Assembly: GCA_045837725.1 (NCBI GenBank)
Contig: JBEWZL010000011.1
Span: 558,001-622,000, forward strand
Source of the DNA: Vermamoeba vermiformis
Lineage: Eukaryota
Length of the DNA: 64,000 nucleotides
Direction of reading: 5' to 3'
Made by a program: the position numbers and the translations under genes. Positions within the stretch are counted from its first letter, which is position 1, and every line of letters starts with the position of its first letter. The notes under the pieces were generated by a model. The model saw only the letters and a program-made list of their open reading frames with translations, was not told the origin of the DNA and did not search any database. Of the stretch, positions 6,429 to 53,970 are shown piece after piece.

Positions 6429-6469
6429 GTTTGATTTAATTTTTATTTTGGCAGCGAAAAGACTTGAAA

Positions 6470-13197: not shown

Positions 13198-16100
13198 ATG
13201 GAGTCAACAAGGCAGTTACAAAATGTCAACTAGATTAGAGCGAGAATATTTAGAGGCTAATAGTATCGAGGAGCTGAATCATGCTTTGCTAGTCAGTGCC
13301 GCTACACAGGGTGACATGCACTCAGTTAGAGAATTGGTTGAAGTGAAGCAAACTGACGTAAATTATATTAACGAGGTATGCTGGGAATATACTCGCGGCT
13401 AGTTCTTTCGCAGTAATCGAAATTGAAAATTTTTTAATTTAATTATTAAAAATTAGAATAATAGAGGCTAGTGTTTGACGGTTTCAAACCTTTATGGCCC
13501 GACCATTTTCGTTGTTAATAATTTAAAATAATAATGTTAATTGCATATTCAGGCTACACGCAAGTTCTACGCCCGTCAAGCAGGCACAGTACTCCTCGCA
13601 GCCTGTGAATCTAATCGCACTGAAGTTGCATTGTATTTGCTAAATAAGGAAGCCGATCCATCGATTAGTGGCCGATTGCCTTATACAGGAATGACAGCTT
13701 TGCACTTCATTGCCTTTTATGGAAATGTAGCTGTACTGCACGAAGTCGTTAAGAGCCTCAGAGCCAAGCACGGAAATGAAACTTTGCGCGAATGTTTGAC
13801 AGCACGTGACAGAGGTGGATTGTGGCCCATTCATTGGGCTGCGTGGTCGTGGCAGGTCGAGGTATGACACGTGTCAAACTGAGACCTTTGTTAACCAGTT
13901 ACAGGTCCTTGAAGAATTACTTAATTTGGGCATTGAGATCGGCGAGAATTGGACTAATGTGGCAAGTGTCCTCAAGAGCAGTTACCAAGGAGTACGCGGT
14001 TTGACACCTGTCCACATGTCATTCATGTGCCAACGCGCCAAGTCTCTATTAGACAATCTGTCCGCTGATTACAAGCACTTCTTGACAGACCAGGTGTCAA
14101 ACACTGACCTCGACGAGCATCGATTGGCTAAGGTCACTGCGCTATTTTTAGATCGCGGCGGTGATTTCATGAAGCGCGATGGTCGATTGATCACGCCACT
14201 GCATTATTTAGCGCTCGGTACGTGACTCATCTCGGCTTTGAGCGATCAGCACAGCAGTGCTAATTTCCTAATATAGAAGGTGAAGTGTGGATGATCGATA
14301 CAGTGCTGAACACTTACCTAAAATGGAAAGGCGTTGCATTCGACGACGCAGAGCAGTTGAAAGAGGTCTGCGAAGAGCTGTGGCAGTCACGTGACATTTA
14401 CACGCAGAACATCTTTGACATCAGCTACGAGCGAGGAAATTTCGAGGAAAGTCACGTGATTCAACGGCTAGTCAAGGCGTGGATGGGCCTGTCACTCACT
14501 GACACTTTGAAGCGTGTCAAATTCGATGCTTTTGCGCGACTGAGGAGTGAAAATAGCACGGTGCAGCAAGGTAAGTCAATCTTTACTAAAAAAGGAAAGC
14601 TCATTAGATCGGAGCAACGCCTCAATCCTGTTTTCGGTGAGAAATTTCATTCTGTGACGTGTTGATTTTTCTGTACACGTGTCATTTGAAGATTTTGTTT
14701 GCCTCTGTCTCTTTAAATATTTATTTATATTAATACCACCATAACACCACGGAGATCAGACTATTTTACCTAATTTGGTAAATGCTGAAGTTAGTTTTAT
14801 CGTCGATTATTCTTTTTTTAATAATCGCTGTTGATCACACGGTTGCTACCGAAGTAAGAAAATAACAATTAATTAATTATGGCATAAATATTGAGGTTAA
14901 TTTCCAAAATAAGACCAAAAGACCAGCTCTTCACGACGCGATTGCGAAAGAAGACTTGGATCTGCTTCGCCAACTCCTGTCAGCACCCGATGTCGATGTT
15001 AATATTAGAGACCATCAAAAGGCTTCTCCACTGCACTTTGCCGCGCTAACAGGCCTCAAATACGTGCAATTACTGCTGGATCAGCCGTCAATCGACGTCA
15101 ACGCCAGAGACAAGCACAATTTGAGGCCGCTGCATTACGCCATGCTTAAAAAAAAGCCTTTTGCCAAGAAAGTAGTCACCGCACTGCTGGACCACGGAGC
15201 AGATATTGAGGCTGTTGGATCCGATCAAAAAGTCACTCCGCTGCATCTGGCTGTGATGGAAGGCAATATGCCACTCGTTCAAATACTATTGGACAGAGAC
15301 GCAAATGTCAATGCTCCGAGTGTGTCGGGCAAGACTGCGCTCCACTCTGCGGTGACGTCAAAGAACCCGGATCTAGTGCACGCATTGCTCAAGTCAAACT
15401 CGTTCAAATTTGCCGATTATCCGCAGCACCACGACTTGCTGGCCAATGCACTGCCCATGCCCGCGGTGTTGCGCACTCTACTGCACTTCGGATTTGACGC
15501 CAAAGCACGTGACACCGAATTCAATTCGACACTGCTGCACTTAGCTGCCACGCTTGGCTCACTCGAAGTACGTTCATGAGCAGTATTAGTGTATATAGGG
15601 AGACATACTAAACTGCGCAGAGTGTCAAAGTGTTGTTGGAGTTCAATGCGGACATCAATGCGCGCGATGGGTGGCTCAAAACACCGCTGCACTTTGCCGT
15701 GTACAACAAACACAATCACATTGCGCGGTACTTGTTGGACCACGGCGCCGAGCCTCAGCTGCCAGATGACGCGGGCATCACTCCTTATCACGAGGCTGTG
15801 CAGGCAGACAACAAGGAGATGATTGAATTGTTGCAATCATTGAGCAGTGATGATGATGAGAAGATTGAGTTGTGAACACGTGACACGATTAGGGACTGGC
15901 TCCAATAAATACTATTTTTGGCATCACTTATTCACAGACAAAATAGGCACTCAGACTAATATATTTGCTTGCAGAACGGCTTGAAGAGTTGACGAAGAAC
16001 TGTGCCTGTGCCCTGACCGAGTGTGCTGACTGTCACGCGACTATTAAGAGCTGTGTCAAGGAGGCAAGCGGAATTATTCTCTAATGCGTAAGTGCCGCAC

Positions 16101-16486
16101 TGACATTTCCTAATTAGGACCATCACGACGTGTGTTTGAAGAGCACGTGCTTTGCGTGTCCCAGTCGCGCTTATGGCTGCAAAGAAGTGTTCAAGACTGT
16201 CACTGACATTGCAACACATCTGCAAACGAGTTGTCAGGCCTCACGTGTCACGTGCATGTGTCAGCGTGACATGTTTGCACACGAGTACAGCGCACACTAT
16301 TTCACTGAACACGTGCAGCCCAAGTCACGAATGAGCGTGATGCACGCGATGACAGATGTCACGTCACTAGCGGACTATGACATGTTGTGCCCGGCCTGTC
16401 GCATGATCATTCCTGTCAGCAAACGCGAGCAGCACGTGTGTGCCGTGACAGCAGTGGTGGCGATAGATCCCATCGATATTGTGTGA
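13198..16486 (+). CDS. Ankyrin-repeat protein with C-terminal TRAF-type/C2H2-like zinc fingers; proposed ~1.4 kb intron 14571-15974
   Basis: Ankyrin repeats (GMTALHFIA, GLWPIHWAA, LITPLHYLA); a phase-1 donor at 14571 matches a phase-1 acceptor ending at 15974, giving VQQ-E-RLEELTKNCAC...CADC..., then CPSRAYGC...HLQTSC. Confidence 0.65.
14782..15875 (+). CDS. Signal-peptide ankyrin-repeat protein ending in KIEL (putative ER-luminal), nested in an intron of the previous gene
   Basis: MLKLVLSSIILFLIIAVDHTVATE from ATG 14782; about 8 ankyrin repeats (SPLHFAA, TPLHLAV, TALHSAV, TPLHFAV); C-terminus DDDEKIEL*; AATAAA at ~15904. Confidence 0.75.
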
Positions 16487-16597
16487 ATAGGAGTCATATT
16501 TAATATCTGTATTGTAAATAGCTGTGTACAGTGTAAAATCAGATCAGAGTTACAACAAAGATGTGTTTGAGCTTTATTATTCACATGAATGAGCACC

Positions 16598-19500
16598 TTA
16601 CAAGGGCTTGATCTTGCGCGTAATAGGCGCAATAACAACACCAGCCTTCGTCTTGACTTTGGGCTCGACCATCTTCTTGAAGGTCTCTTGCGGGTTCCAT
16701 TCTTTGCCGATCGGATGTCGCATGGCCTTCTCGTAGACATCACGTGACTGGTACGGGAAGGGTTGTTGCGCCACTTGGTACTTGACTGTCTTCTTGTCTT
16801 GACGGCCACTGATGATCACGTGCTTCAAGTTCTTGTCCACGCGCTGATCACGTGCTTTTTCTTCTTCAGCATCACGTGTCGCGAGCAAGTTCTTTTGACG
16901 GCGCGTCATCTTCTTCTTCGACTCGTCAATGCCAGCACCAGACCAGCTGCCCCAGCCCGGCATGAATTCTATTTTTAGACTCTCGTCCTTGACGTGGTCG
17001 GGCAGTTCTTCCCTAATTTGGGCTTCTTTCTCCTTGTAGAACTCTGTTTCAACATCGTCGGTCTCAAAGGCGCGCGAAATTAATTCTTGTTGGCGCTTGT
17101 CACGTGACGCGAGCAAGTTCTCGGGCTCGTTGTTCTCGTCGAATGAATTGGTCTCGGCCTCTTCGTCGCTGTCCAGGGCTATTTTAGTCATCTTTTTCTT
17201 GTTTGGTTTCTTCTTTTTCTTCTTGGTCTCGCCCTCCACTGCCTCAGTGCCCGCGACAGCATTGATCGCTTCACTGATTTGCAGCTTGTTCTCTTTCTTG
17301 CTGCTATTTTTAGACTTGACAGGCGTGTCATCGTCGTTCTTCTGACTGATCCAAGGGTTTGACACGTCTGAGGTGCGCTTGGTGTTTTTGGACTTGGTGG
17401 CACTGCCTGATTTGGCATTGCTGTTCAGTGAAATTATTCCGTCGTCCTCATCCATGGCTGCAAATGGTTCAGCCTCTTCATCGCCATCGAGCACTGGTGC
17501 CACGCCCTTGCTGAGCTTGTCGGCATTGACTTTGACGCGCACTGATCGCTCGTCCACTGGCTCGGATTGGACGGTGCTATTTTTAGCCTCAGTCTTGTTC
17601 TTGCCTGATTTGGCAGGTGCTGGCAGTGGTGACTTGGAGTTGACATTGAACAAGTGCTCGCGCTTCTTGTCCTTGGCCGAGGAGCTATTTTTAGACGGAT
17701 CAAACTCCGAAGTGAAAGCACTGCCGAGCATGACGTCGTGTGTTTGATGCGAGTCACCGATCAAATCGACCTCGGCACCCTCAACGTGATCACGTGACTG
17801 ATCGGCACCGCGTGGTCGAGTGAAGCCTCGTCGTCCTTGAATGGCACTCTCATTGACCTCTGACTCGGAGTCATCGGAGTCCTCCGCAACTCTATTTTTA
17901 GGCACGTCTTCATCGCTGTCTGCTGGCAACTCGTCATCCTCGCCGTGCAGTTCACGTGCCTTGGCGTCTAATTTCCTTTTATGGGTGCGTTCTTCATCGC
18001 GAATCTGTCGGATCAAGTCACGTGCCTCGTCAGCCTGACGCTCAGCACCGCGCTGCATGAATCGCATGGCCATCAGACCAGTGGGCGCGGTCTTGTTGTG
18101 CTGGGCAATCTCCTGTTCAATCTGCGCCACCTCCTCGTCACTCGCGTCACCCTGCTCGAAGCTGTCGCCGGCACTGCTGCCATCACTGTCACTGCCCTGC
18201 TCGCCACGGATCTTCTTTTTGAGCTCTTGGCCCAGTCTGTAGTGCTCTTCGAGGTCCTTTTTCATGAGTGGATTTTGACTGTGACGCGCGTGTTGGGCCC
18301 ATTTGCTGGCCTGTTTGTGCTTCAGTGTCACGCGTTCCAGGGCGCGTTGTCGATCGAGCTTCTCTTCCTCTTCAGCCGCTGCTTCGGGGTCTAACTCGCG
18401 CATCTCTTCGAGTGTCATTTGTTTGCGCTCTTTGGCCTTCTTCAAAATCTTGCGGTACTTCTTGCTCTTAATGCGCGCCAATCGCTTCAGTTTCTTTTCT
18501 TGGAAAAACATGGCCGATCGCATCTTGGCGAGCTCAGCTTGACGTGCTTTGATCTGCTCGAGGTCCACTGGGCGGTGGTGCAAGTCGTTGTCGCTGTCTT
18601 CGTCCGAGCCAATCATTGCATCTCCCGCCATCTCGCTGGGCTCGCGCAAACTCTCAGCCATGATGGCACGCACCTCTTCTTCGAGATCGATCGATCCAGT
18701 ATCGTCTTTGTTGCCTTTTTTGGCATCTTCAGTCATCACACGCTTGGCGGTGGCGAGTGCGGAGTTGTTGACGAGGGCAGTCAAGTTGTGCGAGTGGCGG
18801 TGCAGGATGGCTTTTGACACGCCCACGCCGTCGAATGTGCCGTCACTCTTGGTGAAGTCCAAGCTCGGGGCACGGCGCAGCGACTGCACGGTGCTGGTCC
18901 ACTCGTCCAACTGGCCCTTCACCACGTCAAAGGCCACTTCGCGCTGCACTCGACTGCGCGCCACGTTGTTTGCAGGTGGGGCAGTGACACGTGTCACTTG
19001 CGAGGTGTCAGCGCGTTGCAGTTGTTGCGACACTTCACGCATGCGCGCATACACGCCACCAGCACCTTTGGGCTCGAGTGCGCGGACCAGGTGACTGAGC
19101 GACAGCTGATCACGTGACTGGTTGTCGGAGATCTCCGCGCCCTGGAGATTGAACTCGCCCTCGCTGCGTGCAGAGGTCTGTTCATGAACCACACGACGCT
19201 TCTTCTTGGAGGGTTCGGATGTGCCTGTCACCGCTTTGAGCAGCGAGGCGTGTTTGACGTCATCTACATCCTCGTCCATATCATCATCCTCATCATCGTC
19301 ATCATCTTCATTCTCGTCGTCTTCGTCTTCGTCGTCATTAAATAATTCATCAATTTTTCGCTTTTTAGATGCGCTCTGTTGTTTGTTATTGCTCGGTGCA
19401 GGTTCGTCGTGGTTCATATCGAGCATATCGGAAAGGTTAATATAGCCTTCACCATCATCATCTTCGTCGTCAAAGTCTTCTTCCTCGTCATAATTTTCCT

Positions 19501-19934
19501 CATCAGATTCGGATTGTGCGATCTGCCATAAAATAACGATCGTTAAGCGTTGCGATTAATTGCATAAATATTTATCTTTTCAAAACAATACAATGATGCT
19601 TTAAAATTTGAAATCCGATCGGATCGCGTTAAGAAAAAGAGATTTGTAACTGAAAATTATGCAATCGTAAATATCGAGCTTATAATGCTTTGTTTGAATA
19701 TTTAATAGAGTATAACCTCAACAATAAATTGCTTACCTGAGCAGATTTCTTCTTTTTGTCAAACAGATCGCCGTACTTCTTGTAATCCTCTTCATTGAAT
19801 GCCTCGTCAGAATCAATTTCTTCGTCGTCATCTGCAGCTTCATATTTAGTTTGGCGCTTAGGCACCCACTTCTTGTCTTGACGTTGAGGGATTTGCTTCC
19901 CTTTCTTGGATCCACCCGATCGTCGATTCATCAT
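16598..19934 (-). CDS. UTP14: U3 snoRNA-associated protein 14
   Basis: EEIDSDEAF, KRLARIKSKKYRKI, ERVTLKHKQASKWA, MPGWGSWSGAG, PFPYQSRDVYEKAMRHPIGKEWN; one intron ~19524-19736. Confidence 0.95.
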
Positions 19935-20201
19935 TATACTTTTGATGAAGCGATCTTGTGTATGATACAAATAATATGATAAAAAAATATTGTTGAAAAA
20001 TTGTTCGTTTATTTTCACGTGGAAAATTTGGATCGCGATCTGACGTTCAGTATTGGCACTGAGTGGTGAGATATTGGCGAGGTTTATTGACAACAATATA
20101 ACGGTACATAATATACAATCATATTGGATATTTACAGGTGAAGTAGTGACACATTATCTACAAGAGGAGCGACATCCAGATTCAGCTTTCCGTTCACTGA
20201 A

Positions 20202-21971
20202 CTAGGACTTGAACAGCGTGACCGAGGCAATGTAATCATTCTCCATCACTTCAAATATAATGTCCTTATATGGATAGTACTTGAGCGTGCCGTACGGACT
20301 GCCTTCAGTTTCAATGAAAATCAGGGGCTGTTCTGGTGCGGGACCGAAGAACTGTTTCACTTCAGACCTGCAAATATTTCCTAATTTAGTAATTGTATCG
20401 AGACAGGGGCGTAAATAGATCGTACCACTTCATGTCCGGATTGAGTGTGTTGACAGACTTCTCGAGATCCAGCTCCTCTTCTTGCTGATTGGCGGGTTCT
20501 TGTTCAGGATCACGTGCCTCTTTTTCTCCGAGATAATTCTCCGGCACAATCACACGGTAATTGCACCGCGCGTACTGATTGAAGTGCGGGTCAGTCGGAT
20601 AATTCGTGTGCAGCACAAACTTCTTGATCACGTGCTCCTCGCCGTCAAACAGAATGTCAAAGCCGAGCCTGAAGTAGTTGTAGAAATAATCGTCGTTCAA
20701 CAGTCGCTCTTCAATCACGCGACCGCGGCCTGGCACGGGCACTGCCACTGGACGGTGAATGCGCATGGGGTCGTGCAGCTTGTAGAAGATCTGATCGGGC
20801 GGACCGAGTGCCACCAACACGTCTTGCGGTGACGAGCCGAATGTCAGCGTGCGCGCGGGGACAGCTCCGAGCGAGTTATTTTTAGAGTCGCTGTCACTGC
20901 TGTCCTCGGACCCTCCTCCGAGACTGTTGCCGAGGCCACCAGCGCGCTGCAGCCACATGCCCTGGGAGGGAATGACCCACACTTCCCAGAGCGAGAGCAC
21001 GCTAGTGACAGGTGCCAATTCTTTTGACATTTGCAACTCTTTTTTCTCGTCGTCCTCTTTGCGCTGTTGAAAACTGCTCACGTACACGGCACCGACCTTG
21101 ACGTCGTCGAACACGGGCATTTCTGATTGGTGCAATTAGTTCACTGAAACAGAGTTATTGTTCACTGAACGCGAGACTTACTGCCGTTTTTGACCTCTTC
21201 AGACTGACGTCGTGCCTCGGGGATTGGGAATGTGAAACAAATGCCCTGGTAGAGCGTCAGTGACTAATTAGGCAATCAGAAGCACGTGATCACACTTACA
21301 GGGAACGAGAGCTTGAAGAGTGTCTGCTGCTGGTCATAAGTGCCGGGGATCGAGGGACCGAACACCTTGCTGATCTGATAGACTGACGGCTGGGCCCACG
21401 CACTGTGCTGGATGTGAGTGCTGTCATAGGGCTAGAATGAATAGGACTCACCTGCTCAGTGTTTGACCGCTGTACCAGAGCTCCACGCGCTTCAAGTCGT
21501 ATAGTCGTACGATCTCTAGTCTCTGACTGCGCGCATCAAAGCGTAATTCAATGCCATTCGTGACCAGATCGATGATCAGGCCTGTAGCTAGCGGATCCTG
21601 CCTGGGTATTAGAAATGCGAGGGATAATTTATTCATGCAATATGCAATTATATTACGTAATTAGTCTTGAATTATATCGAATTACTCATTTTTTACAGCC
21701 AAATTTCCAGCTTACCTTTTCGTTGTATTTAAAATCAGCTTTTAAAAATATGTGACTATTTTCTCTGATTTGTGCGATCACTTCTGATATTGATGAGCCT
21801 ATAATAGTGCATAATTAAGGAATATTGTCAATTTAGAAATAATAATTATTTTGTAATTTGCAAATAAAGACTCTTGTTATAATAACGATAATTACCTATA
21901 ATAAATGGTCCTACAATTCCATATAGTGGTTTAATCTCTAATCGAAGTGGCTGTCCTTTGTTGCGATCCAT
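20202..21971 (-). CDS. PHAF1: UPF0183 / phagosome assembly factor 1 (C16orf70) family protein
   Basis: GIELRFDARSQRL, FGSSPQDVLVALGPP, DYFYNYFRLGFDILFD...KKFVLHTNYP. Confidence 0.88.
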
Positions 21972-22137
21972 CTTCGTAGATGACTAGTTTGTACTCGATA
22001 TCGAATTATTAAATAGCGTGCACAGAGATCTAATTGCGTGTATGCACTGTCACTAGTTGTGTTGTTATATACAAAATTAAGTTAGATTCCGCTGTCTCAG
22101 AATTGTCAACAAAACAGCTAGCCCTGGAATAGTTGGT

Positions 22138-23248
22138 TTATTGCTTGCCAAACACTTCCAATTCAGTCACTTGGAAGTTATAATCTCCAGCAAAGAGGGT
22201 TTTTCCCTTTCCGGTAGTGTCTGTGTAGCTGTGTGGAAAGTTTGAAGAGGAGTTGCTATTGGTGTTGGCGTTGCTAGCAATATGCAAATCATGTCCGCCT
22301 CCGAAAGTAGGTCCATATGCTTGGCTGCAACACGCAGCACTATTGTGATCCGAAACGTCGAATTTAGTCGGACCAATGCCGTGCTGATTGACCAGTGTGA
22401 ACAGCGAGGCCTTAGTGCAGTGAAAGTAGTTCTCACTCCCGGGAGGCCACGACGTTCCTATATGTCCCCCAAAGATGTTGTTGCCTGACTTGACTACAGT
22501 CACTGTCTCTCCCTTGTTGTCGCACTTTGCGTGGAAGTCACTGCCTCGCCAGCCATCACGTGATGCTTTGTACAACAGCTTCCAACCAGGGCCGTACCAC
22601 TGGGTGAGCTGAGTGATTTGCTGCGCGTTCAATATCGAGCCTCCTTCGAAATTTTTAGGTCTAGTGTTGACACCCTCTTTCTTCAGCGCAGCTAACGTGG
22701 CATTGATCTCATCGACACGCGGTTGCAGCTCCGCCAAGCGCGACTTCTCGCTCAATGTTTTGGATTCGAGCTCGCCGAGTCCAGTTTGAATGACCTCGAA
22801 GTTGTGGAGGTATTTGGCCAACTCACTCTTAGCCTTGGCGTTGTTCTTATCCAAGAGCTCGAATTTATCTGTTATGGCTTGCAATTCGTTATTCAGACGC
22901 TTCAGATCGGCCCAAGTTGTACACTTCCAGTTTGGCTTGTCGTTGAAGACGTCCCATACATCTGTACGTAGAGTGCCTTTGATTTCGAACTCTTGAATGA
23001 GACTTTCCACTGTTAAATATGAAAGAATTAAATTTATTCCTCGGATTCAATTTAGTTTAATGCTTTAATTCCTGGTACTTACCTTTGACCGTCCTACATA
23101 CTTCCTCCAATACAAAGTCATCATCTACGGCCTGTTTTGGCTTGTAAAAGTACTCGTACAGGAGCACTTCGGAGAGGCTTTCAACACGAGCAATAATTTC
23201 TTCGTTAGTTACGTGAATGGCACGTATCTTTAGCAATAAATCCTCCAT
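22138..23248 (-). CDS. TLDc-domain protein with N-terminal coiled coil
   Basis: WKLLYKASRDG...FHAKCDNKGETVTVV...IFGG...YGPTFGGGHDL...ELEVF. Confidence 0.88.
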
Positions 23249-23640
23249 CGTGAATAGTTTGTTAAGTGTTAACTGGCTGAACTTCTGTCAGATCAATTTG
23301 ACGTCCCAATTTTATTAAATTTAGCAAGGCCAAAAATTTCGGAAAGTGTTAATGTATCTGTTATTATTATCAACAGTTACCATTGTCCAATAAGAAATTA
23401 TCCAGTATATCGGCGTTCTGGGGTGTTAATGCGTTAGCATCCGTTGAAAGGTAGGCAAAAAAAATGCTTAAAAATTCCAAATAATTTATTTTGGAAGTAT
23501 CTACATACAATAATATTTTTAGTGTTATTTTGATCGTTTTTCATGCACGAGATTTTTGTCACTTTTGGTTTTAAGCATCCACTAATATTTATACTAGTCG
23601 ACGGGCATTATCACTCAAGAATTAAAAACAAATATAAACC

Positions 23641-25489
23641 ATGGAAACGAAATTAACCAAAAAGGATATCGATGCAATTTTGAAAAGAAATCAGATCGAA
23701 GACAATTTATTGCCGGTGGTGCATCAGTATTGCTCACCGCAGCTCAATATAGCCGAATATGATTTTTTAAAATCACACACCGAATTATTGGTAAGTCCTT
23801 ATTAATTTTGAGGGAACTCTTCCATCCGTCATTTGGCGCCAATTGTTTAATCAAACTGAATGCTATATTCAGCCATTAATACGCGTACACTACTGACCTA
23901 TTCCACAGATCCCTGCGCTGATCGAAGCGCTAATTATAGTCGCCATCACAGCGAACAATCGCGGTGACGAGACAATGGCCTATTTTTATCACCGCAAGGC
24001 GGAATTACTCCGTCACGTGACGTGGTGGGGCCAGAAGAATCCCGAACAGTTCTTCGACATCTTGCACCGCACGCGCAGTCCAGCAGCGGTGTACAACACT
24101 GCGCACGTGTCCGCTGCCGCACGCCACGGTGCCGATCACGTGCTGGAACAAGACGACACGGTGATGATTGACAGCGAGATTGTGCCCGACGAACTCACAC
24201 CCGAGCACGTGACCGATCCCATTCTCCGCCCAGTCCTGCAGTCACGTGATGCCAGTTACCGCGACTACTACGACGCAGTGATGGGTCAGCGCGGCGAGGA
24301 CGAGGAGAGCGAGGCCCGTGAGAGCTTCTTTGTCAGCGTGGGACCCCCGCCCCAGTGCGACGAGGACTACTTCGACAGACTGGCGCAGCAGTACTTTGAG
24401 GGCGACAATTTGTTCCGCAACATTCTGCTGCAGTCACGTGTCAAAAGCGAGGCTAAAAATAGCGCGGGCAGTGCTGTCATCAGCGAGGAAGAGAAGGTCA
24501 AAGCGCAGATGAAAGCGGAGTGGCTATTCCTAATTAGGAAATACTTCGACAAGGACGAGATCGAAGTCGTTGGTGGCACAGTGACACTGCGCGATGACGA
24601 GCACGTGACTGAACACGAAGAACGCGAGCGACAGCAGAAACGACGCGTGTCAATCGTGTCACAACAAGCGCACAACAGACGTCAACTGATCGAAGACTTT
24701 GTGCACAATCGACACGAGGGCATGAAGCTGTTCTTGAACTGGCTCGAGTCCATGACACCTGTCACGCGTCACGAACTGTTCGAGCACGTGCGCGACGAGG
24801 TGTTGAATACCATATTTGGCAATATCCCCGAGAGTCTCAATCTGCACTTCGATTATTATCTGCACCGCGACGAGATCGTGCACTGCTGTCCCGAGCTGTT
24901 GGACCTTGCCAAATTAGGCAATGACGACTGCGCGGTGCTGTTCGACACGATGATCAAGATCAGTCTCGGCAAAGAGAACTTGTTTTCGTCGACCTTCGAG
25001 CAAGAGACGCTCAAAGTCACGCAGCGGCACTACGCCAAGCTGATGCACGAGGTGTTCAATGCTGTCACCGCGCGTGCGGCTATTAATAGCTCTGCTGTCA
25101 ACAACAACGTCAATCAGAACAACGGCGAGAACGGCGCGGAGACACCTGTCAATTGGGCACTCACACCGCAAGACGATGTACAAATATGGAATTGGCTCGA
25201 AAAGGCTAAAAATAGATCGTTCCCGTCGATCAGCGCGCACATCTACCTCTCATGGGAACGAGACACTTTCCTAATTAGGAAATTCGCTAGTGAAGACCCG
25301 CGACTGCTCCAAGCCATTGCACAACGTCGCGGAACATTGCAAGACTATGAACTGCCGTATTTGTTGTTCAGATCTCGCGCGCTACAATTACTGGTGCTGC
25401 AGCTGATCCACATCTGTCTCAACGAGTGTTTGAATCATCGCGACACTCTCAATGGCAAGAAAAGGAAGCGAAAGGTCGCTAGTTCATAA
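23641..25489 (+). CDS. Uncharacterized protein with C-terminal basic NLS-like tail
   Basis: ATG at 23641, intron ~23791-23909, 504-codon ORF, ends KKRKRKVASS*; no family recognised. Confidence 0.7.
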
Positions 25490-25752
25490 CAATGACTGAA
25501 CAGCGCTCAAAAAAACAAGTTTGTAACGGCAAGCAGATCTGATGCCAGTACAACTAGTCCTTGTGTTGTGCACGGAGCAGCTTGTTGCATGTAAAATAGT
25601 AAATAATGTTTAAAAGTCATTCGATGCTATTCTGCCGCAAGACTAACTGAGCACATCTTGCTTGACGGCGAATTTTCATCGGCTAGGTAAAAGGTGACAT
25701 CCCAAAGTTTTGATAAATTAATTGTAATTATTGTAGATAAGACCACACTAGC

Positions 25753-27127
25753 ATGTACTCATTGCAGTCAAGCCTAGTGTCTAGCAGCACTATAGACGAG
25801 ATTGAAGACTTGTTTCTCGTGCACAGATTCACCGAAGCACTTGCCAGATGCGAAGAAGAGCTTGCACAGTGTTTTAATTTCAAATTTAATTCATTAGATA
25901 ATACACCCGTCACAGACAAGCACTTGGTTGATGGCAGCATAAGACTCGTATCGTTGGTGATCCAAATCCTCTACGAATTGAAGAGGGCCAATGAAATTAT
26001 GCCTTTTGTTATTAATTTTTACGGTGGACTAGAACACGTGCCTTTTGGAATAATATACATGTGGTAAGCATCAGAAATAAGAAATAATTTTTAAATTTTG
26101 AAATTATTATTTTATTTTCAATTTGGCTAATCGAGCCATCTTTTCAATTAGCGCTAATAATATCATATATATACTACAAATATTTTATCGTACTATCAAA
26201 TCACTATCGCGTTGGCCTGTGATTAACGATCGCCACTCATTGCCTAATTTAGCATCAATCTGCAAGTGACACTGAACAATCTCGCGGAGGCTAAAAATAT
26301 CATTTTCCATTCACTGAACCGATTCACGCCCGTCGAGGTCTGGAGCAGCGAATTGGATTCCGATCACGTGCCGCAAGACGATTACGCGCAGCTCGTCGAG
26401 CTCTATTTGTTCCACGTGCTCGATCTCGACACCGCGCATCGGGTCATCTCCGGTGAAATCTCCGCGCAACGAATTCAACTCCCCGAGCACTCGCGCACTG
26501 AATTCGCGCAAAGAATACTGCAAGCCAAACAACGACAAGCGGAACAATTGACTGACAGTGCCACCGACATTCAAGCACCCGTTCATGAACCGAGCACCAC
26601 CAGTCACGTGGACAACAGTGCCACCACCACGGAGATCGTCAAGCCCAGCCGTTCAGGGAACGAGCCCAAAAAGGCAATTAATCGGTGGCACGCGACACGT
26701 GAGCGCGTGATTGACTATTTGGTCGACTTTGGACACTTCCGCGACCGCGACAGAGTACGTGACAGCAATTGCCTTATTTGGACATGTGTGCGGTGTACTG
26801 ATCGATCTATTTTTAGCTGTCGCACGTGCTGTCCAATCACAATCTCGTGATGAGTCTCGTGTCTCTGGCCGTGGCGGTCTTGTTGCTCTCACGCCGATCA
26901 CGTGCGCGCATCATTGGCCTCGTTCGGTACGTATTACTATATTTGGCAATCACCGTGCTGACATTCCCTAATTTAGGAAATTCTTCGCGTTCATCATGAG
27001 TCACGTGCACGAGCTGTGGTCCATGCTGACACTCGTCAACGGCCAGGCACCCCCGCCCCCACGTGCTGTCACTGCGAACCCCAGTTTGACACGTCCATTG
27101 ACACGTCGACTGCCCAACACGCGCTAA
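25753..27127 (+). CDS. Pex26/APEM9-like tail-anchored peroxin
   Basis: EDLFLVHRFTEALARCEE, LVIQILYEL...FVINFYG...VP and YAQLVELYLFHVL resemble Pex26 N-terminal blocks; hydrophobic segment plus basic residues near the C-terminus. Confidence 0.6.
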
Positions 27128-27377
27128 TTATAGCACTGTACATATTTGGTCATCACTCGCTGTAAATAAAACTGCTCTTTCTCGGTCAATATTCACTTGA
27201 TACACTAGGGACACTATATGGGCACTATATCACCTAGTATGGCTATTAATTGTTGCCATGTAACGCGACAGATCCGCTGCGCACTCAAAATTGTTACGAT
27301 AATGCACAAAATCAGCGGAGCTAAGCATTAATGAATGTTTTATTCGTCCTCGAGCACGCAACACGTCTCAATTAAAT

Positions 27378-29349
27378 ATGAAGTGCTTATATAGAGCCGT
27401 TCTAGTGTTATTGACACTCGCATTGCTCAGTTCCACACTGGCAGCGCGCACCACATCCATAACGGACTGCCAAGTGGTCATTGCAGGAGGCAGCACCGCG
27501 GCATTTGCAGCAGCGTTGTCTTCGAGCACATTCGTCAAGACCTGTCTTGTAAGTCTTAATTAGAGCTCTAAGATTGCGATCCGACTTTAAATGTCAAATG
27601 TGTAATTATTATTAAATAATATTGATATAGTAATAATAATGCCTATAATAATTATTACCTACGATGCAGCTCGAGCCCACAGATTGGGTCGGGGGACAGT
27701 TCACCAGTTCGGGACTCCCCGCCCCCGACTTTGCCTGGCACACCGTCAAAAATCCCGCTACGAATGCGACGGAGAATGTGGCGGAGATCGACAGAACAAA
27801 AGCAAACATTACGCCCAATTTGTATCACGTGCTGCAATCGATCGGTGACCCTGGTGCGTGTTGGGTGTCACCGTACTGCGCCACTTCTTTGCAGTATTTG
27901 CAGAAATTTCAAGAACTGATCGACGAAGCTGGTCCCAATCTGCAAATATTCTACAACACGGTCGTGAAAAATGTCACGACACGTCAATTGACAGGTCGCG
28001 AAGTGATCGTGTCACTGAGTGTCATTCAGCGCACTGCACGCAACGAGACAAAGTGCGGCGGTTACGACCAGTTTTTGAGCGCGGACTTGCCTGATTGGTA
28101 CAAGTGAGTGATCGATTGCCTTATTTGGAAATGTTATTTAACTAAATTCTCGGCAGTGTCAACGACTCACCGCGCTACACCAAGCACGTGCTCGAGTTCA
28201 AGGCACGTGACAGCACACCACTCATCTTCATGGACGCCACTGAATGGGGTGAATTGGTACGTACCTCGATTTGACACGTGTCACTCGCTGACCTCCACAG
28301 CTCGCAGTGAGTGACGCGCCCTATCTGCAAGGCATCGCGGAGAAATTCGACGGTGACACGAGTGGCCAGGGCAATGACACGTGCGGTCAATCATCAACCT
28401 TTGCAGTCTCGGCCAAGTTATTTCCTAATTTGGTTACTGAGCCCGCAAATCCCTACCCCGACCACTGGTCTGCAAATTACTTCTCGCTGACCGGCCACTC
28501 GTGGGACAGTGTGTGGACCTATCGGCGCATGACAGCTGCAAATAACGACTGGCAACATGCCAGCACGCATGATGTCACGCTGCAGAATTGGAATCCCGGC
28601 AATGACAATGCATTTGCGTACCTGTTGTTGACACGCAATGTCACGCGTCAACAGCGGAGTGACTGGCAGGGCGGTGTCAGCGTGCAATCTTTGCAGACAG
28701 CCGAGCACATGGCCTACGCGTGGCACTACTGGTTCAAGGCGCAAGCACCGAGCGACAAATTAGGCAAAATCAAGATGATGCGCGATCAGTTCGGCACCTG
28801 TCACGGCCTCAGCAAAGTGCCGTACATGAGGTACTGCGGTGCATGCATGGGCCTCGTATTGTACTGACCTCGCCTCGCAGAGACACGCGCCGATCGATCG
28901 GATTGGACCATTTCGTCATGAAAATCACTGAAATTTCGGGACTGCCCGAACAACGCGTCGGACACCAATACCGCGACAGGCTGGCCCTGGGCGCGTATCC
29001 AGTCGATGTGCACGGCCTGGCAGGGTGCCACTACCCCGCGTACATGAACCCCGGTCTGTATCAAGTGTTGCCGTTCTACATTCCACTGCGCGCACTGACC
29101 AATCAGCGCTATGCCAATCTGCTCGTGGCTGGCAAGACCATGGCCACTTCCTTTTTAGTAAATGCTGGTGCGCGGCTGCACCCCATCGAGTGGAGCTCGG
29201 GCACAGCTGCGGGGGTCAGTGCGGCGATGATGGCGCAGCTAAATTTAGACTCAACAACAGTGCTGCTCACTGCACACTTGGACAAGCTGCAACAGGTCAG
29301 CGCGCAGTACACCCCGCAGTGCTGGACTATCCAGGGCCAGTGCTACTGA
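27378..29349 (+). CDS. Secreted FAD-dependent oxidoreductase (FAD_oxidored-like family)
   Basis: Signal peptide; VVIAGGSTAAFAAA...LEPTDWVGGQ; DATEWGEL; PYMRDTRRSIG; PFYIPLRAL...NLLVAGK...RLHPIEWSSGTAAG. Confidence 0.85.
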
Positions 29350-29405
29350 CCCGTGCAATGGCTGCTGAGTGGCACTGTGAATAAATGCTTTATATTGCCA
29401 CCACA

Positions 29406-31465
29406 CTACGCGCACTTGGCTCTGACGCGCTGTCGGTACACGACGAGCAGCACGGCACTGAGCAGCACTGCCGCTCCGAGCACTGCACCCACCACTGCGC
29501 CGGCGATAGCTCCGTCTGTGAGTGCTGCATGGGAGGGGTTAGTAACGGCTGTAACGGCTGACTGCACCGTACCACTCGAGGGACTGTTGCTGGCACTGCT
29601 CTCCGCACTCAGCGGCGCACTCACAGTAGCCGCACACACTGCCGCGAGTGCGAGGGGATCACCGCGATAGAACAGTGTCGCATTGCCAGTGAGCCAGTCC
29701 GTCTTGTTCGTGTCGTACTGGTTCATGTTGCTGATCAGCCACGTGCTCGGTGCCACGGCAGTCGGGTATTGAAAGGTGCCTGCGAGCTGTGCGGGCCAAA
29801 ACACGGCGCTGACTGCCGCACAGCCGAGTCTGTCTTTGAGCTGCTGCATGTAGAGACTGGTCGGCAACACTGGCTGCTGCGTGCGCACATCACTGCAGTG
29901 CCAAGGGGGGTGAGTACGCTATATAGTATTTAGTATAACATATCGACTACGCACTTCCAGTACGAGCTGTTGTCCTTGCTGTTGCCCACGCACACGTTCT
30001 GACCAATCAGCGTGGGTCCCGCGCACTTGTACAGCCCTGGTGAGCCGTCCTCATACGCCACGTAGTTGTTCCACTGCACCGAGGTGACTGCGTAGTAGCC
30101 ACTGAAGGCGGCATTCCAACTCCAGTCCGTGCCCATCTCGCTGTACGTGGCCTCGAGCAGCTGGCCCGGGTACATGGCGCCGAATGCGTAGTACATCGGT
30201 CGCCAGGGCCGGATGTCCGTGCAGTGCGAGATAACCACGGCACTCGCGCTGAGCACGCTGTTGCTGGTGACAAAGTCGCGCGAGTACTGCGCTGCGACAC
30301 GGTGAATGAACAGCTGCGAGAGGTGATAAAGTCTGAAAGTCTGACGGATGTCGGGCTCGATCGATGCGATGGGATTGAACAGCGCCACGCAGTCCTCGAA
30401 GGTCCAGCGGCGCGAGTGCAGTCCCGAGCCCTGCAACAGCGTGCCAAAGTACTCGCTGACCACGTCCTTCACGAACACGTCCTGCACCAGTCCGTGCGCA
30501 TCGAACACCACGCCCAGATTGGGAGTGCCGCTCGGTCTGATGGCGCGCAGGTGTGCAAAGCCAATGTGATGCACGTAGACTGCACTGGCCTTGGACACGG
30601 TGCCCTGGTAGATCGGATAGTACAGCGGGGCCTCGAGTTCAATGTACTGCGCGGTGACAGCAGTGACGTGGCGCAAGACAGCGTGCCACCACACCGAGCC
30701 GTTGTACTGCACGTCACTGGCCCACTGCGCGGTGACGGTCAGATTGATGTGCACGTGATCGGACACTGCAAAGGCCGCGGTGCTGGCGAGGTAGATGCGA
30801 TACGCACCAGTGGGCACGTGCTGCGTGATGGCAGTGGCGTTGCTGAGTGTCACTTGGCGCCCATTCAGAAAGAAGCACGTGTCGTTGCACAGCAGCGTGG
30901 TGCCACCGAGACCGGAGCCAGCCCCGCGCAGGATGTAGCCCATTCTGTCCGCCAACTGCACCGCACCACTCGCCGTGCGCAGGTCATATGTCCCGGCCTC
31001 GAGTTGTATCACTGCCTTCCACCCTGCTGCATTGGTGGGCAGCGACAAGACAGATCCGATCGTCGCGATGAGATTGGCTGCATCAGTGCCATTGCCACTC
31101 GGAGCCAAGTGTATAATAGGCGCACCACCGCCATCCGTTGGCAATGCAGTGCCACCGCCTTCGAATCCAGCGTGCGAGAAGTCGGGAATGTTGTTGCCTA
31201 GAGCATCAGCGACGTAATGTAATTGGACATCAGCATTGCTGGAGCCAGTAGTGTATATATAGGGCACTGTTTGTACATTCAGCGTGGCTTGCCAGTCACT
31301 CTGCAGCAGGGCGGAGGCACGAGCAAGGCGCGCTTCAAAATCAGCTGCTTTGGACGGTGCAGCAGGACTCCACGGCTGATTGTAGCGCGGCTTGACCCAC
31401 GCATTGCCGTGCATTGCTAGGGCACACAGCACTATCAGCACTGTTGACGCGCGGATGGGTGTCAT
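29406..31465 (-). CDS. Secreted, membrane-anchored pectate-lyase-like beta-helix protein
   Basis: Signal peptide; GNNIPDFSHAGFEGGG, LEAGTY, LRGAG, PTSLYMQQLKDRLG; Ser/Ala stalk and C-terminal TM (GAIAGAVVGAVLGAAVLL); one intron near 29893-29953. Confidence 0.7.
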
Positions 31466-31849
31466 TGTTTAATTTGACAGGTTCTGAATCAATATAGTGG
31501 TGAAGATAGTGCAGTCCTGTTGTATGTTCGACAAGCAATATAATGTTATTAATTAACACACACTCCCGAGATTCCCGTATGACAGGCATCAACTGCCCTA
31601 TTATCCTGAGTCCTAGTTGCGTAAGCATTAGAAATCAGGGCATGGTACTGACATATAATGCCATGCAGGAAGTTAATCAGCCCTACCTAGTACCCTGAGG
31701 GATCTGACGATTCGCCAAGATTTCTTGACTTTGCTGGATCGAAGATGCTGCGTGATTCTGCGCGGGGTTGATTGCGTCTAGGAAAGCAGTTCATTTGTCA
31801 TAGATAATAGTATTAATAAAACGTACTCTTAATTTATTCGCATTCGTCT

Positions 31850-34800: not shown

Positions 34801-34890
34801 CAGGTCAATGCCCAACACGAGCGATGTGACTTGGACGATAGGCACAAATAGGAATAGCGCTGCTAAGAGCCACAAGGAATTGAACCGCAT
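31850..34890 (-). CDS. HYOU1: Hypoxia up-regulated 1 / GRP170 (ER Hsp70-family)
   Basis: Signal peptide, VLGIDLGSHYFK, ELIGGSTRVP, HLNGDEAAVLGA, C-terminal KDEL. Confidence 0.92.
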
Positions 34891-35143
34891 CTGATATTTT
34901 CGATAAAATTAACGGCCTGTAATGAACGACAATGAGCTTGCGAGGGCTAGTGCAGTGTAATATGGCACTGAATATCAGCTCTTGAGGTATCAACAAGTCG
35001 ATCTTTAAAACAGTTTGGCTGCGTGAAAATTTTTGGTTTTGTAGTCTGACCACGTCACCGAATTGTCGCTTTGAAATTCTTATTTGAAGTGTGCAACACT
35101 CCGCACTGACACAACTAGGCGCGTAGTATATACACATATCAAT

Positions 35144-35634
35144 ATGAGCAGCAAGAAGGCACCAGCAGCTACGCCAGCCCTTGGATGGGGCAGATATTTT
35201 GTGCGCGGTAACAGCGAACTGAACAGCGAGGACGACAAAGAGCGACTGCAACTAGTGGTGCATTGGATCAGACAAGTGCTCGCGCTGTTGTGTGGCGTGA
35301 TCTGGGGCCTCTCACCGCTCTCTGGCTTCATTGGTCTCGCAAGGTACACTGCCGAGTCGTAAATAATATTAATACGCTTATTAATACGATCATTCGATAG
35401 CTTTATGGTCATCAACCTTGGTGCTATTTATTTTTATTACAACAAATATTTAATGCTGGATGAGACCGAGTTCGAAACAAAAGATCTGTTACAAGAGGGT
35501 CTAATGCCTTCATTCGCGAGCTTTTTGGTGCGTAATAATTAATTACACTAATAGCCCTCTTATTATCGAAAAATTGACACTCTCTTGTGCAGGTGACGTG
35601 GATCACGATCTACAATCTCAAACTCAACATGTAA
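35144..35634 (+). CDS. RAB5IF: RAB5-interacting factor / OPTI (C20orf24) family membrane protein
   Basis: VVHWIRQVLALLCGVIWG...GFIG, EGLMPSFASFL|VTWITIYN. Confidence 0.88.
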
Positions 35635-35807
35635 CATTACCTCTTAATAGCCACCAATATCAGCGCATTAAACACGTTCATAAAGTGTACATATTAACAA
35701 TAGCGATTATCATGTATAATGAGGCCTAACAGTGACAATCAATTTTTTTATTTACAAGTCAGATGCAGCTATGTTACAAGAGAAGTGCTGTAACGGCAAG
35801 GCCTATC

Positions 35808-36574
35808 TTAGCCCCTAGTGATGCGCAATATATATTAGAGTGGTTGCGTGCAGACAGTGACGTCAGATCTACTTACCACGCGGCAGTGTTGGCGTAATTG
35901 ATGACGAGCTTGCCATTGTTGTGAAAGCACTGCAATATATATTATACATTAATACGCGCACATGTGACTAGTGACATTGGCTCGAGGCACCAAGCCGTCA
36001 ACTACAACAAGCACTGCACGTACCTTGAACAGATCTGACACCGTCTCGTCGGGACTCGGCTGAAAACTCGCGTTGATGAACAGATACTGCACGAGGGATG
36101 AGTACACGTGTGCATATGAAACATATATAGCGTGCACGTACCAGGGGGTCTGTAGCGCTGAATTTGAGTTGTTTGCGCAAGAAGTCGATCACCGTTTGAA
36201 AAGTGGTCGTGGCGGTCAATTTGAACTTCTTCTGCTTCAATTCAGGGGCATTGCCTGTGTGCTTGAAGAATATCACCACTGTATGGCATAGTGAGCACGG
36301 TCAGTTGAGCACATTGGAATAACAGTTCGTGTAAGCAATTTGAAAAATATTAACCCAAAATGAATTCTAATTAATTCTGATTATTTAGCTGCATACCTTT
36401 ACCATCGGCCATGTATTCTGCAATAATAACAATGCATTTTAAAATTAGTAACGCGTCGTTAAGCGATATTACAAGTCACTCACCTTCAGCGGACTTGGGT
36501 TTTTTGTTCTCATCTTGCTGATCGAGTGTGGACTCTTGCAATGTCGATGTATCGAGCGCAGGATTGTCAGCCAT
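35808..36574 (-). CDS. ATG12: Ubiquitin-like autophagy protein ATG12 (includes micro-exons)
   Basis: GNAPELKQKKFK, YLFINASFQPSPDE, LVINYANTAAW|G*. Confidence 0.93.
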
Positions 36575-36784
36575 GTCTATTGCTCTGTCTCAGTGCTCAA
36601 AGGTGCAGTTGTGCTGCGTGCATTTCGTTTTTTCACTGTCTCGCGCAGTCCTCAGGCGATATCACCGCGCCAATACAAGTCTCGCCGCACTGACGAAGCT
36701 GCGCTCGCAGCGGCAATGTATTTCTTGTAGTCACCTGCCAACTTGCAAACCACCGATCATCTGTATTAAACGCACTCTAATCCA

Positions 36785-39460: not shown

Positions 39461-39535
39461 CCAAATTAGGCAAATGAGCCACGTGACTGTTCTACACGAT
39501 AAATAGCGACTGACTGCCAGTGTTCATCATTCATT
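39461..39535 (+). promoter_or_regulatory. Putative promoter cluster (CArG box, E-box, TATA-like, Inr-like) upstream of the G8 gene
   Basis: CCAAATTAGG 39461-39470, CACGTGAC ~39480, ATAAATA ~39499, TCATTC ~39526, followed by a likely 5' UTR. Confidence 0.35.
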
Positions 39536-52347: not shown

Positions 52348-52349
52348 AT

Positions 52350-53960: not shown

Positions 53961-53970
53961 TTTGTTAATA

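Follow-up and report, generated by a model that had tools for sequence, protein, structure and literature searches.

The window analysed here is a stretch of 64,000 nucleotides of Vermamoeba vermiformis DNA (contig JBEWZL010000011.1, positions 558,001 to 622,000 of the forward strand); all positions below are counted from its first letter. On its minus strand, positions 16598..19520 hold the main coding exon of UTP14 (Pfam Utp14, E=3.4e-124), with the first in-frame ATG at 19426 and a reading frame that stays open to 19555. In the first-pass annotation of the window, the decamer CTATTTTTAG, or CTAAAAATAG on the opposite strand, had been seen to recur in this exon and elsewhere in different frames and on both strands, along with the E-box CACGTG and with CArG words, and this had been taken to mean that constraint acts on DNA rather than on protein. 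We find that these words belong to a small vocabulary of symmetric DNA words concentrated in the gene bodies of the window, and that the pressure favouring them acts on the DNA. The labels MEF2, E-box and CArG were assigned by sequence resemblance alone.

The window is eukaryotic, as it carries spliceosomal-type introns and, among others, genes for UTP14, URB1, PRP19 and a GCP family member. Pfam agrees with the gene names UTP14, URB1 and UTP10 given earlier. In particular, URB1 matches Npa1/NopRA1, UTP10 matches U3snoRNP10/HEATR1, and the GCP family member has the gamma-tubulin complex C-terminal domain; for the orphan gene at 23641, the Pfam search gave no family. URB1 (43259..50579, plus strand) is the densest carrier of words, with 5.8-15.2 words per kb of exon, and UTP10/HEATR1 (58994..64000, plus strand), which runs off the window, has 9-13. 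A RhoBTB-like gene (56958-58305, plus strand) encodes a Ras-family GTPase domain followed by a BTB domain. The closest named homologue of PRP19 is from Arcella intermedia (44%), with animals next (40-44%), and the closest named matches of UTP14 come from early-diverging fungi and assorted protists (27-41%). By these figures the lineage is isolated and possibly amoebozoan; the RhoBTB-like architecture and a CEMIP-like gene, taken together, hint at amoebozoan or opisthokont-related affinities.

The decamer occurs in 26 exact copies against 0.08 expected from dinucleotide-preserving shuffles (none of 100 shuffles reached 26), and CACGTG occurs at 206 sites against 26.35 expected from such shuffles, the largest of which had 40; the enrichment is ∼300-fold and ∼8-fold, respectively. 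CACGTG also ranks first among the 64 palindromic hexamers, the runner-up having 63 sites. In an unbiased count of k-mers, both proved to be part of a small set of symmetric words, comprised of CTA(W4)TAG (W being A or T), CC(W6)GG with TT.CC/GG.AA flanks, [T/G]CACGTG[A/C], and TGACA-NN-TGTCA. The window contains 44 sites of CTA(W4)TAG, 26 of them the exact optimum decamer, 45 sites of CC(W6)GG, and 42 of TCACGTGA; there are 15 copies each of GTCACGTGAC and of the 12-base palindrome TGACACGTGTCA, and 11 of TGACACCTGTCA. TGACA-NN-TGTCA is found in 33 places, with CG as the commonest centre (15), followed by CC/GG (11), and with GC once, at 60060. A rarer symmetric word is GTTCA[C/G]TGAAC, seen for example at 17425, 21160, and 49650 (TTCACTGAA 20 times, GTTCAGTGAA 14 times), and we take its TTC-N3-GAA core to resemble STAT-type sites.

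When the words are aligned in their contexts, the flanks are degenerate yet retain two-fold symmetry: (G/T)CTAAAAATAG(C/A), aTT(g/t)CC-W6-GG(c/a)AAt, and tTGACA..TGTCAa. Among 83 oriented rows of CArG words, T occupies the two positions ahead of CC-1 in 60 and 57 rows, and A occupies the mirror positions in 58 and 62; one flanked form, CCTAATTAGGAA, has five copies. The bases flanking E-boxes are commonly T, G or A and rarely C, the latter accounting for 15 of 142 half-sites in frame 0, 1 of 102 in frame 1, and 10 of 140 in non-exon DNA. T and G flanks combine independently (42 sites with TT, 54 with TG, 16 with GG), and A pairs with itself, yielding the TALE-type TGACA palindrome. This preference recurs in frame 0, in frame 1, and outside exon blocks. 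Perfect words prevail over near misses, with 26 perfect decamers vs 22 for all 30 one-mismatch variants together, and 15 perfect copies of GTCACGTGAC vs only 0-2 for each variant with a core mismatch. Around six or seven of the 26 decamers, an E-box-like word was seen by eye within 20 bases on one side, which is not clearly above the local density. We also considered a mobile element or a longer repeat around the words and rejected it: the flanks are unrelated beyond ∼3 bases, and the repeats in 1-14000 are only short and word-centred. Therefore, the words are not copies of a mobile element.

In UTP14, all five decamer positions of the first-pass annotation hold CTATTTTTAG on the plus strand, i.e. 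CTAAAAATAG in gene sense, and the minus-strand readings given there are correct. The MEF2-type word at 16969..16978 lies at codon offset 0 and reads LKIE, where orthologues have the consensus IDNT (37 of 56 with D, 43 of 56 with T); LKIE is kept in the related database protein P0003. The remaining four lie at offset 1. SKNS at 17304..17313 corresponds to TKNS in P0003, which could still encode the word, and AKNS at 17577..17586 corresponds to AKNI, with the last base of the word lost; SKNS at 17685..17694 and PKNR at 17892..17901 correspond to SQNR and PNNR, neither of which can encode it. The decamer readings reported elsewhere in the window (LKIA at 57225, LFLD at 14142, AIFR at 57899) are likewise accurate.

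Nine of the ten E-boxes in UTP14 read (S/A/T)-R-(D/E/V), and one, at 16817..16822, reads HV. The former include SRD at 16741..16746 and 17101..17106, ARD at 16849..16854 and 18019..18024, TRD at 16873..16878, SRD at 17791..17796 (LRD in P0003, not encodable as the word), ARE at 17953..17958 (ARK in P0003, not encodable), and SRD at 19111..19116, the word closest to the 5' end of the gene (ARD in P0003, still encodable). The ninth, at 18988, is part of a perfect TALE-dimer-like palindrome TGACACGTGTCA (18985..18996) that reads VTRVT, and LTRVT in P0003, again encodable. The CArG words are CCTAATTTGG at 17012..17021 (AQIR on the gene strand), CCTTTTATGG at 17975..17984 (THKR), and CCTTTTTTGG at 18714..18723 (AKKG; PKTG in P0003, not encodable). 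Over the exon blocks described below, the E-box peptides are HV, SRD, TRV, ARD, SRV, and xTW/xTC, the first three being those noted before, and the aligned contexts, read by eye, confirm that TTCCTAATTAGGAAA and TTGCCTTATTTGG translate into the CArG peptides FLIRK and LPYL. Upstream of the main exon (19495-19560, minus strand), the frame is open and has no suitable ATG. The codon I-A-Q is preceded by ..ttattttatggcag, which resembles a 3' splice site and makes an upstream exon likely; therefore, the N-termini of P0002 and P0003 (MWQIAQ.., MGNDLIVIGQIAQ..) are probably read through an intron.

We compared word counts in 18 confident exon blocks (25,779 bases in total) with two null models, permuting either synonymous codons within each gene, which leaves the protein unchanged, or the order of codons. 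CACGTG was observed 141 times, vs 52.2 under the synonymous shuffle (maximum 65) and 17.4 under the codon-order shuffle. Thus, both codon choice and amino acid sequence lean toward the word, and synonymous reshuffling with the protein fixed removes 63% of the exon E-boxes. The longer words exceed the fixed-protein expectation 13-60 times: CTA(W4)TAG was observed in exons 28 times (0.5 and 0.1 under the synonymous and codon-order shuffles, respectively), CC(W6)GG 24 times (1.8 and 0.6), and TGACANNTGTCA 18 times (0.3 and 0.1). The codons used within words include ones that are rare elsewhere. CGT comprises 18% of arginine codons outside words and 53 of the 59 inside; CTA comprises 2% of leucine codons outside words (23 codons), and 15 more are inside; for TTA and ATA, the fractions outside are 3 and 7%, with 11 and 8 codons inside. 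Words fully contain 53 of the 129 CGT codons, 15 of the 38 CTA codons, and 73 of the 278 CAC codons.

Tabulation by frame and strand showed that the words are not limited to one frame. The E-boxes in the exon blocks are distributed over the frames as 73/53/15. In open reading frames (ORFs), the decamer is found in the CTAAAAATAG sense in 14 of 26 cases (ten xKNS/R, four LKIx) and in the CTATTTTTAG sense in eight (six LFLx, two AIFR), two of these eight being HDAC copies in short ORFs that may be intron ends; four decamers are in predicted introns, and none of the 26 is intergenic. The only frame that the decamer does not use is the one putting TAA and TAG in frame. Relative to transcription, the words take both orientations (the decamer 15 vs 11 times, TGACACCTGTCA 7 vs 4, CACCTG 28 vs 20, and GTTCA[C/G]TGAAC 7 vs 6). 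As asymmetric words are found in both orientations, the target is more likely to be duplex DNA than RNA.

The words are confined largely to gene bodies. We counted 360 word centres (E-box, CACCTG, MEF2-type, CArG, TALE 12-mers, and GTTCA[CG]TGAAC), of which 340 lie in the word-rich part of the window, 13800..64000, with a median gap of 76 bases. Approximate gene spans total 54.5 kb, leaving 9.5 kb of the window outside them. E-boxes have a density of 3.58 per kb in gene-body spans vs 1.16 in the rest, MEF2-type words 0.79 vs 0.11 (43 of 44 are inside spans), CArG words 0.79 vs 0.21, and TALE 12-mers 0.59 vs 0.11. The AT-rich spacers are almost without words, and it is the AT-rich words that are rarest there despite their easiest origin by chance. 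The spacer between URB1 and HDAC (50580..50763), with ∼185 AT-rich bases and no words, is an example. The 5' ends of genes are also AT-rich and without words; the first word comes ∼900 bases after the ATG in URB1, ∼290 in the orphan gene, ∼380 in HDAC, and ∼400 bases into the main exon in UTP14.

Gene bodies differ in their density. URB1 and UTP10 have an overall figure of 9-15 words per kb, the orphan, Hsp70-like, and RhoBTB-like genes ∼10, UTP14 6.4, and PRP19 5.7. Only 1-3 words per kb are found in PHAF1, TLDc, the GCP C-terminal domain, a CEMIP/TMEM2-like gene, and the ORF at 29933-31468. E-boxes alone reach 9.4-11.3 per kb in URB1, 10 in UTP10, 8.6 in the RhoBTB-like gene, 5.3 in the orphan, and 3.5 in UTP14. 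The first 13.5 kb of the window, with a DNA-methyltransferase-like gene and chains of AT-rich ORFs, are nearly word-free. Word density per kb correlates with the GC content (r=0.60); still, the word-poor CEMIP-like gene and ORF 29933-31468 have the same codon usage and GC content at third codon positions (GC3) as the word-rich genes, and so the GC content alone is no explanation.

Introns were predicted by an objective rule, yielding 21 introns with a total of 1,287 bases. They are ∼45-60 bases long and have GTA donors, a CTRAY branch-like box, and YAG acceptors. At least one word is present in 13 of them, 18 words in all, and the resulting density of 14 per kb equals or tops that of almost every exon block (1-15 per kb). 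In URB1 (plus strand), the 52-base intron 44612..44663 has TCACGTGA five bases past the donor site, the 53-base intron 46934..46986 contains TGACACCTGTCA, and the 47-base intron 49461..49507 contains CCTAATTAGGCAAT and ends in CTATTTTTAG, these last ten bases serving also as the 3' splice site. An intron of 49 bases in the RhoBTB-like gene (57484..57532, plus strand) contains CACGTG and ends in CTAAAAATAG, and one of 53 bases in the Hsp70-like gene (33641..33693, minus strand) contains TCACGTGA and a CArG word. In total, the decamer supplies the acceptor TAG in four predicted introns (26755-26816, 49461-49507, 54696-54741, and 57484-57532). Two URB1 introns, 49005-49055 and 49461-49507, have ACCTAATTAGGCAAT directly after the donor site, which may reflect either a chance reuse of the CArG word or a common origin of the two introns.

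To compare the words with protein conservation, we aligned three proteins (UTP14, PRP19, and the Hsp70-like protein), each with 56-70 distant homologues. The word peptides are mostly not common to the orthologues: in UTP14, agreement with the orthologue consensus is 0.12 at word codons vs 0.36 elsewhere. Among columns of the Hsp70-like protein conserved at 0.5 or more, the consensus is kept at 3 of 12 word codons vs 92 of 140 others. Pooled over the three proteins, 14 of 33 word codons agree in such columns, vs 418 of 672 others (Fisher p=0.028), showing preferential placement at poorly conserved residues; with the threshold raised to 0.7, agreement is 8 of 14 vs 276 of 353 (p=0.096). Individual replacements at word codons are suggestive, such as TRE for IKE (K in 60 of 70), HV for YL (Y in 59 of 70), and SRD for GRD (G in 68 of 70) in PRP19, and HV for RV and AV in the Hsp70-like protein (R and A in 54 of 70 each). 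The word-encoded peptides are also present in the independent database proteins P0002 (99%), P0003 (88-90%), P0099 (94%), P0100 (93%), and P0219 (87%), which means that the words are natural and not planted in the window.

The words resemble binding sites of known proteins in both cores and flanks. SRF/Mcm1-type CArG sites follow the flank rule TT.CC(W6)GG.AA, and the Mcm1 site is palindromic; the CArG sites of the window have this consensus with symmetric flanks. The cited part of PMC3250504 names the decamer CTAAAAATAG as the commonest Mef2 consensus, bound also by yeast Rlm1, and the MEF2/Rlm1-type consensus CTA(A/T)4TAG, of which CTAAAAATAG is the optimum, has 44 cores in the window, 26 of them exact. 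Their location is not that of promoter or enhancer sites, as 43 of 44 are in gene-body spans and the exact copies fall into ORFs (22) and introns (4). The 64-kb window contains no gene for a MADS-domain protein, and nothing in the analysis ties the words to muscle-type regulation. The E-boxes have T or G as the 5' flank, as in GTCACGTGAC, following the rule of the Cbf1/USF/TFE type, and not the C of the Pho4/Myc type; in the excerpt consulted from bioRxiv 10.1101/2022.03.17.484790, the Cbf1 target site is GGTCACGTGACC and the Pho4 site CCCACGTGGG. Dimers of TALE homeodomain proteins (TGIF/MEIS/PKNOX) have the palindrome TGACAG(C/G)TGTCA, in which two TGACA half-sites face each other across two bases. 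For the TALE-like palindrome, the relevant passages list TGACAGGTGTCA for MEIS3, with TCTAAAAATAGA for MEF2D (PMC5449588), and ATTGACAGCTGTCAAT as the canonical TGIF1 DNA (PMC6158717). The flanks T..A match ATTGACAG..CTGTCAAT, and the published centres GG/CC and GC are seen 11 times and once, respectively; the commonest centre, CG (15), is not among the sites given in these passages. On the other hand, known MADS, bHLH-ZIP, and TALE sites are located in promoters or enhancers, are usually degenerate, and number few per target gene, whereas the words of the window are near-perfect, are placed in exons and introns rather than in promoters, and follow one another every 75-150 bases. What chiefly suggests that proteins read the words is that cores and flanks alike resemble the sites of four ancient eukaryotic families of dimeric DNA-binding proteins.

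Our tentatively preferred reading is that dimeric proteins bind the words on the DNA and that selection for occupancy keeps their density high in gene bodies. They would be natural signals on double-stranded DNA, namely near-perfect consensus sites of four kinds: MEF2/Rlm1-type MADS, SRF/Mcm1-type MADS, Cbf1/USF/TFE-type E-boxes, and TALE-homeodomain palindromes. Judging from this resemblance, MADS, E-box, and TALE-family proteins would bind them, and the force behind them would be selection for occupancy of gene bodies. A weak, pervasive, directional force of this kind would maintain a high density throughout transcribed gene bodies, in exons in every stop-free frame and in both orientations, and most densely in the ∼50-base introns, with promoters, intergenic spacers, and the first 300-900 bases of genes staying almost word-free. 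Where protein constraint is weak, as in URB1, UTP10, and disordered parts of UTP14, the force could override codon preference and change amino acids; where it is strong, few words would fit. As for the purpose, chromatin organisation or licensing of native, constitutively used genes is our preferred guess, and it is the weakest step of the proposal. A bolder version seems rather doubtful: the words would form a 'house vocabulary' of native gene bodies, either a code of self-identity or chromatin licensing, read by ancient families of transcription factors, or a drive resembling uptake sequences in a eukaryote, which rewrites even conserved amino acids. The word-poor AT-rich genes would then be young or foreign.

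Several observations weigh against selection for occupancy. Strong sites inside transcribed DNA are unlike classical regulation, and no known function needs one site per ∼75-150 bases. The gaps between word centres look exponential, with the median of 76 and no helical, nucleosomal, or codon phasing (pairwise distances modulo 3 are 227/195/215). Protein constraint alone is insufficient to explain the density: two genes with native codon usage and high GC3, the CEMIP/TMEM2-like gene and ORF 29933-31468, have ∼2 words per kb, as against 5.7 in PRP19, which is highly conserved. Comparison with close relatives, made at the protein level and counting a word as lost when the peptide is unable to encode it, gave no extra conservation: word codons are identical in 125 of 139 cases and other codons in 1660 of 1842 (pooled). 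In the Hsp70-like gene alone, the direction is opposite, 54 of 56 vs 459 of 532. Among 19 sites of UTP14 compared with P0003, nine keep the peptide, four are changed and still encodable, and six are not encodable; together with the equal identity, this means that sites turn over and density persists. Finally, all results come from one 64-kb window, and the gene models are our approximations.

The claim of constraint on DNA rather than protein thus divides. Pressure at the level of DNA is borne out by the shuffles, the rare codons, the use of frames and both orientations, and the introns; for single sites, constraint is too strong a word in view of the turnover. What acts is a weak, pervasive, directional pressure on the DNA of transcribed gene bodies, opposed by protein constraint and accompanied by turnover. 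The conditions that the first-pass annotation named as refuting its claim, motifs limited to one frame and the same peptides kept in orthologues without the DNA words, do not hold.

The loss of sites and the lack of extra conservation fit a non-adaptive molecular drive as well as they fit selection on density. Such a drive, which we consider unlikely on balance, would consist in a step of recombination or repair transmitting word-bearing alleles preferentially, as with DNA uptake sequences or biased gene conversion. In one form, tightly bound sites would shield their own chromosome from breaks and make it the template for repair. Words would accumulate in introns and weakly constrained codons, where their harm is smallest, and be purged near promoters as misregulating. 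It fits the gradient of protein constraint and the turnover especially well: density runs inversely to constraint (14 per kb in introns, 9-15 in URB1/UTP10, 1-3 in conserved domains), sites turn over rapidly between relatives with no additional conservation of the protein, and word codons prefer poorly conserved or lineage-specific residues (14/33 vs 418/672, p=0.028). Unrelated word families also rise and fall together in the same genes, and the ratio of perfect words to variants would imply a weak force, comparable in strength to codon bias or biased gene conversion. The pattern, including absence from genes without homologues, is that reported for uptake sequences in the cited section of PMC2817400. 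However, no such mechanism is known for transcription factor (TF) sites in any eukaryote, recombination hotspots are usually expected to erase themselves, and the same drive would be needed for at least four different words. It also leaves unexplained the word-poor genes that look native or unconstrained and the nearly word-free AT-rich ORF chains at 4.8-13.5 kb. A good deal less probable is that spacers of ∼200 bases have pushed ordinary cis-regulation into gene bodies, so that enhancers of a gene or of its neighbours would sit within coding DNA and E-boxes would mark a regulon of growth or ribosome biogenesis. Exonic TF sites constraining codons are known from other eukaryotes, the URB1-HDAC spacer has only ∼185 bases, and E-box density peaks in URB1 (9.4-11.3 per kb) and UTP10 (10); but the third ribosome-biogenesis gene, UTP14, ranks behind both the RhoBTB-like gene (8.6) and the orphan (5.3) with 3.5 per kb. 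Moreover, the word families co-occur in the same genes instead of sorting by function, the hundreds of perfect sites without spacing or clustering go far beyond regulatory need, and the promoter-proximal 5' ends are the emptiest parts of genes.

The confinement of words to transcribed DNA, exons and introns alike, and the use of the decamer as the 3' splice site in four predicted introns would also be expected of signals in RNA, be they sites of RNA-binding proteins, splicing enhancers, or local hairpins in pre-mRNA. We regard this as very improbable, given that asymmetric words occur in both orientations (15 vs 11, 7 vs 4, 28 vs 20, 7 vs 6), that the two-fold symmetry of flanks is expected of dimers on duplex DNA, that the palindromes are presumably too short for stable hairpins, and that a search of the window for Rfam families gave 0 matches. 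Hardly credible is an origin of the words as a side effect of composition, codon bias, selection on peptides, or context-dependent mutation, or as an artefact (planted or synthetic DNA, misassembly). Although word density tracks GC content per kb (r=0.60) and peptides such as HV and SRD are enriched about three-fold (52 with the protein fixed vs 17 with codon order permuted), dinucleotide-preserving shuffles never come near the observed counts, AT-rich words are enriched in GC-rich genes and absent from AT-rich DNA, and some GC-rich genes with equal codon usage are word-poor. Most words vanish on synonymous reshuffling, introns carry them too, no longer repeat surrounds them, and independent relatives encode the same peptides. 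As a separate cause, we tried a footprint of CpG methylation, which found no support: in 62 of the 64 one-kb bins, those of the word-poor first 13 kb among them, the observed/expected ratio of CpG is 0.8-1.5.

In a full-text search of a limited literature collection, we found no description of a eukaryotic multi-word vocabulary of this kind. DNA signals are known in transcribed or coding sequence, such as exonic TF sites ('duons') and gene-body licensing signatures, for instance the periodic A/T clusters of germline genes in C. elegans. These restrict the choice of codons or label genes as licensed for expression, but they are degenerate or compositional with modest enrichment, and neither reshapes proteins with exact words of 10-12 bases. 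Closer in kind are the uptake signal sequences (USS) and DNA uptake sequences (DUS) of Pasteurellaceae and Neisseriaceae. As described in the consulted extract of PMC2817400, USS are short exact words, hundreds-fold over-represented, that occur in coding sequence in several frames, raise the frequency of the encoded peptides, lie at poorly conserved residues, and are scarce or absent in genes without homologues. These likenesses notwithstanding, USS/DUS are bacterial, have a known cause (biased DNA uptake followed by recombination), and comprise one word per species, whereas the window is eukaryotic and has at least four words, which are symmetric and of TF type, denser (median gap of 76 bases), and excluded from intergenic DNA. 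The octamer HIP1 (GCGATCGC), the highly iterated palindrome of cyanobacteria, is, in the sections cited from PMC5861425, 15- to 300-fold over-represented, present in ORFs more than once per gene, and without a known function after decades. According to the same sections, this single prokaryotic word lies both within and between ORFs, is conserved between genomes, and is periodic at 10-90 kb; the window, in contrast, has several words, almost none between genes, whose sites turn over and show no periodicity within 200 bases. At a threshold of at least 15-fold excess, inside ORFs and in several frames, the words are hyper-abundant too (∼300-fold for the decamer, 15 and 11 copies for the 12-mers), and the host is neither prokaryotic nor cyanobacterial.

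Eukaryotic coding sequence is usually viewed as shaped by the protein, codon usage, and weak overlapping signals. Here, a few exact words of 6-12 bases account for much of the usage of some codons, and lineage-specific replacements at otherwise conserved residues fall on them. Should proteins bind the words, the genome would be a natural experiment on dense TF occupancy within transcribed DNA; should a drive spread them, they would be the first counterpart of bacterial uptake sequences in a eukaryote and would allow a test of protein evolution forced by drive at the DNA level. In this lineage, they are a strong compositional signature for telling native from foreign DNA, and they will mislead motif-based promoter prediction and selection tests with codon models.

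Among the word-poor genes, the CEMIP/TMEM2-like gene (40450-43062, plus strand) is a single long exon homologous to the cell-surface hyaluronidase TMEM2/CEMIP (PDB 8c6i_A, E=4e-64, and the Pfam CEMIP beta-helix). It has three E-boxes, no MEF2-type words, and 15 single TGACAG/CTGTCA half-sites. A foreign origin of the word-poor GC-rich genes (this one and ORF 29933-31468) was considered and found no support, as they use codons in the same way as the word-rich genes; a difference is seen in the AT-rich ORF chains. These chains (4862-9065, minus strand, and 9943-13400, plus strand) have GC3 of 0.36-0.49, odd codon usage, almost no words, and no matching Pfam family, and may be young, foreign, silenced, or mis-framed genes. 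At the left end of the window lies the 3' part of an actin-family gene (6-368, plus strand; Pfam Actin positions 264-357, E=3e-19) without words. It is followed by the DNA-methyltransferase-like gene (1651-4071, plus strand), with a BAH domain at 1651-1923, a chromodomain at 2778-3335, and a C-5 cytosine DNA methylase domain at 3841-4071; together, its short exons look like a chromomethylase- or DNMT1-like gene for a 5-methylcytosine methyltransferase. The only CpG-depleted stretch of the window is 52001-54000 (observed/expected 0.51 and 0.42), with one word, which may be a methylated block between the HDAC and GCP genes or in the 3' part of the GCP gene.

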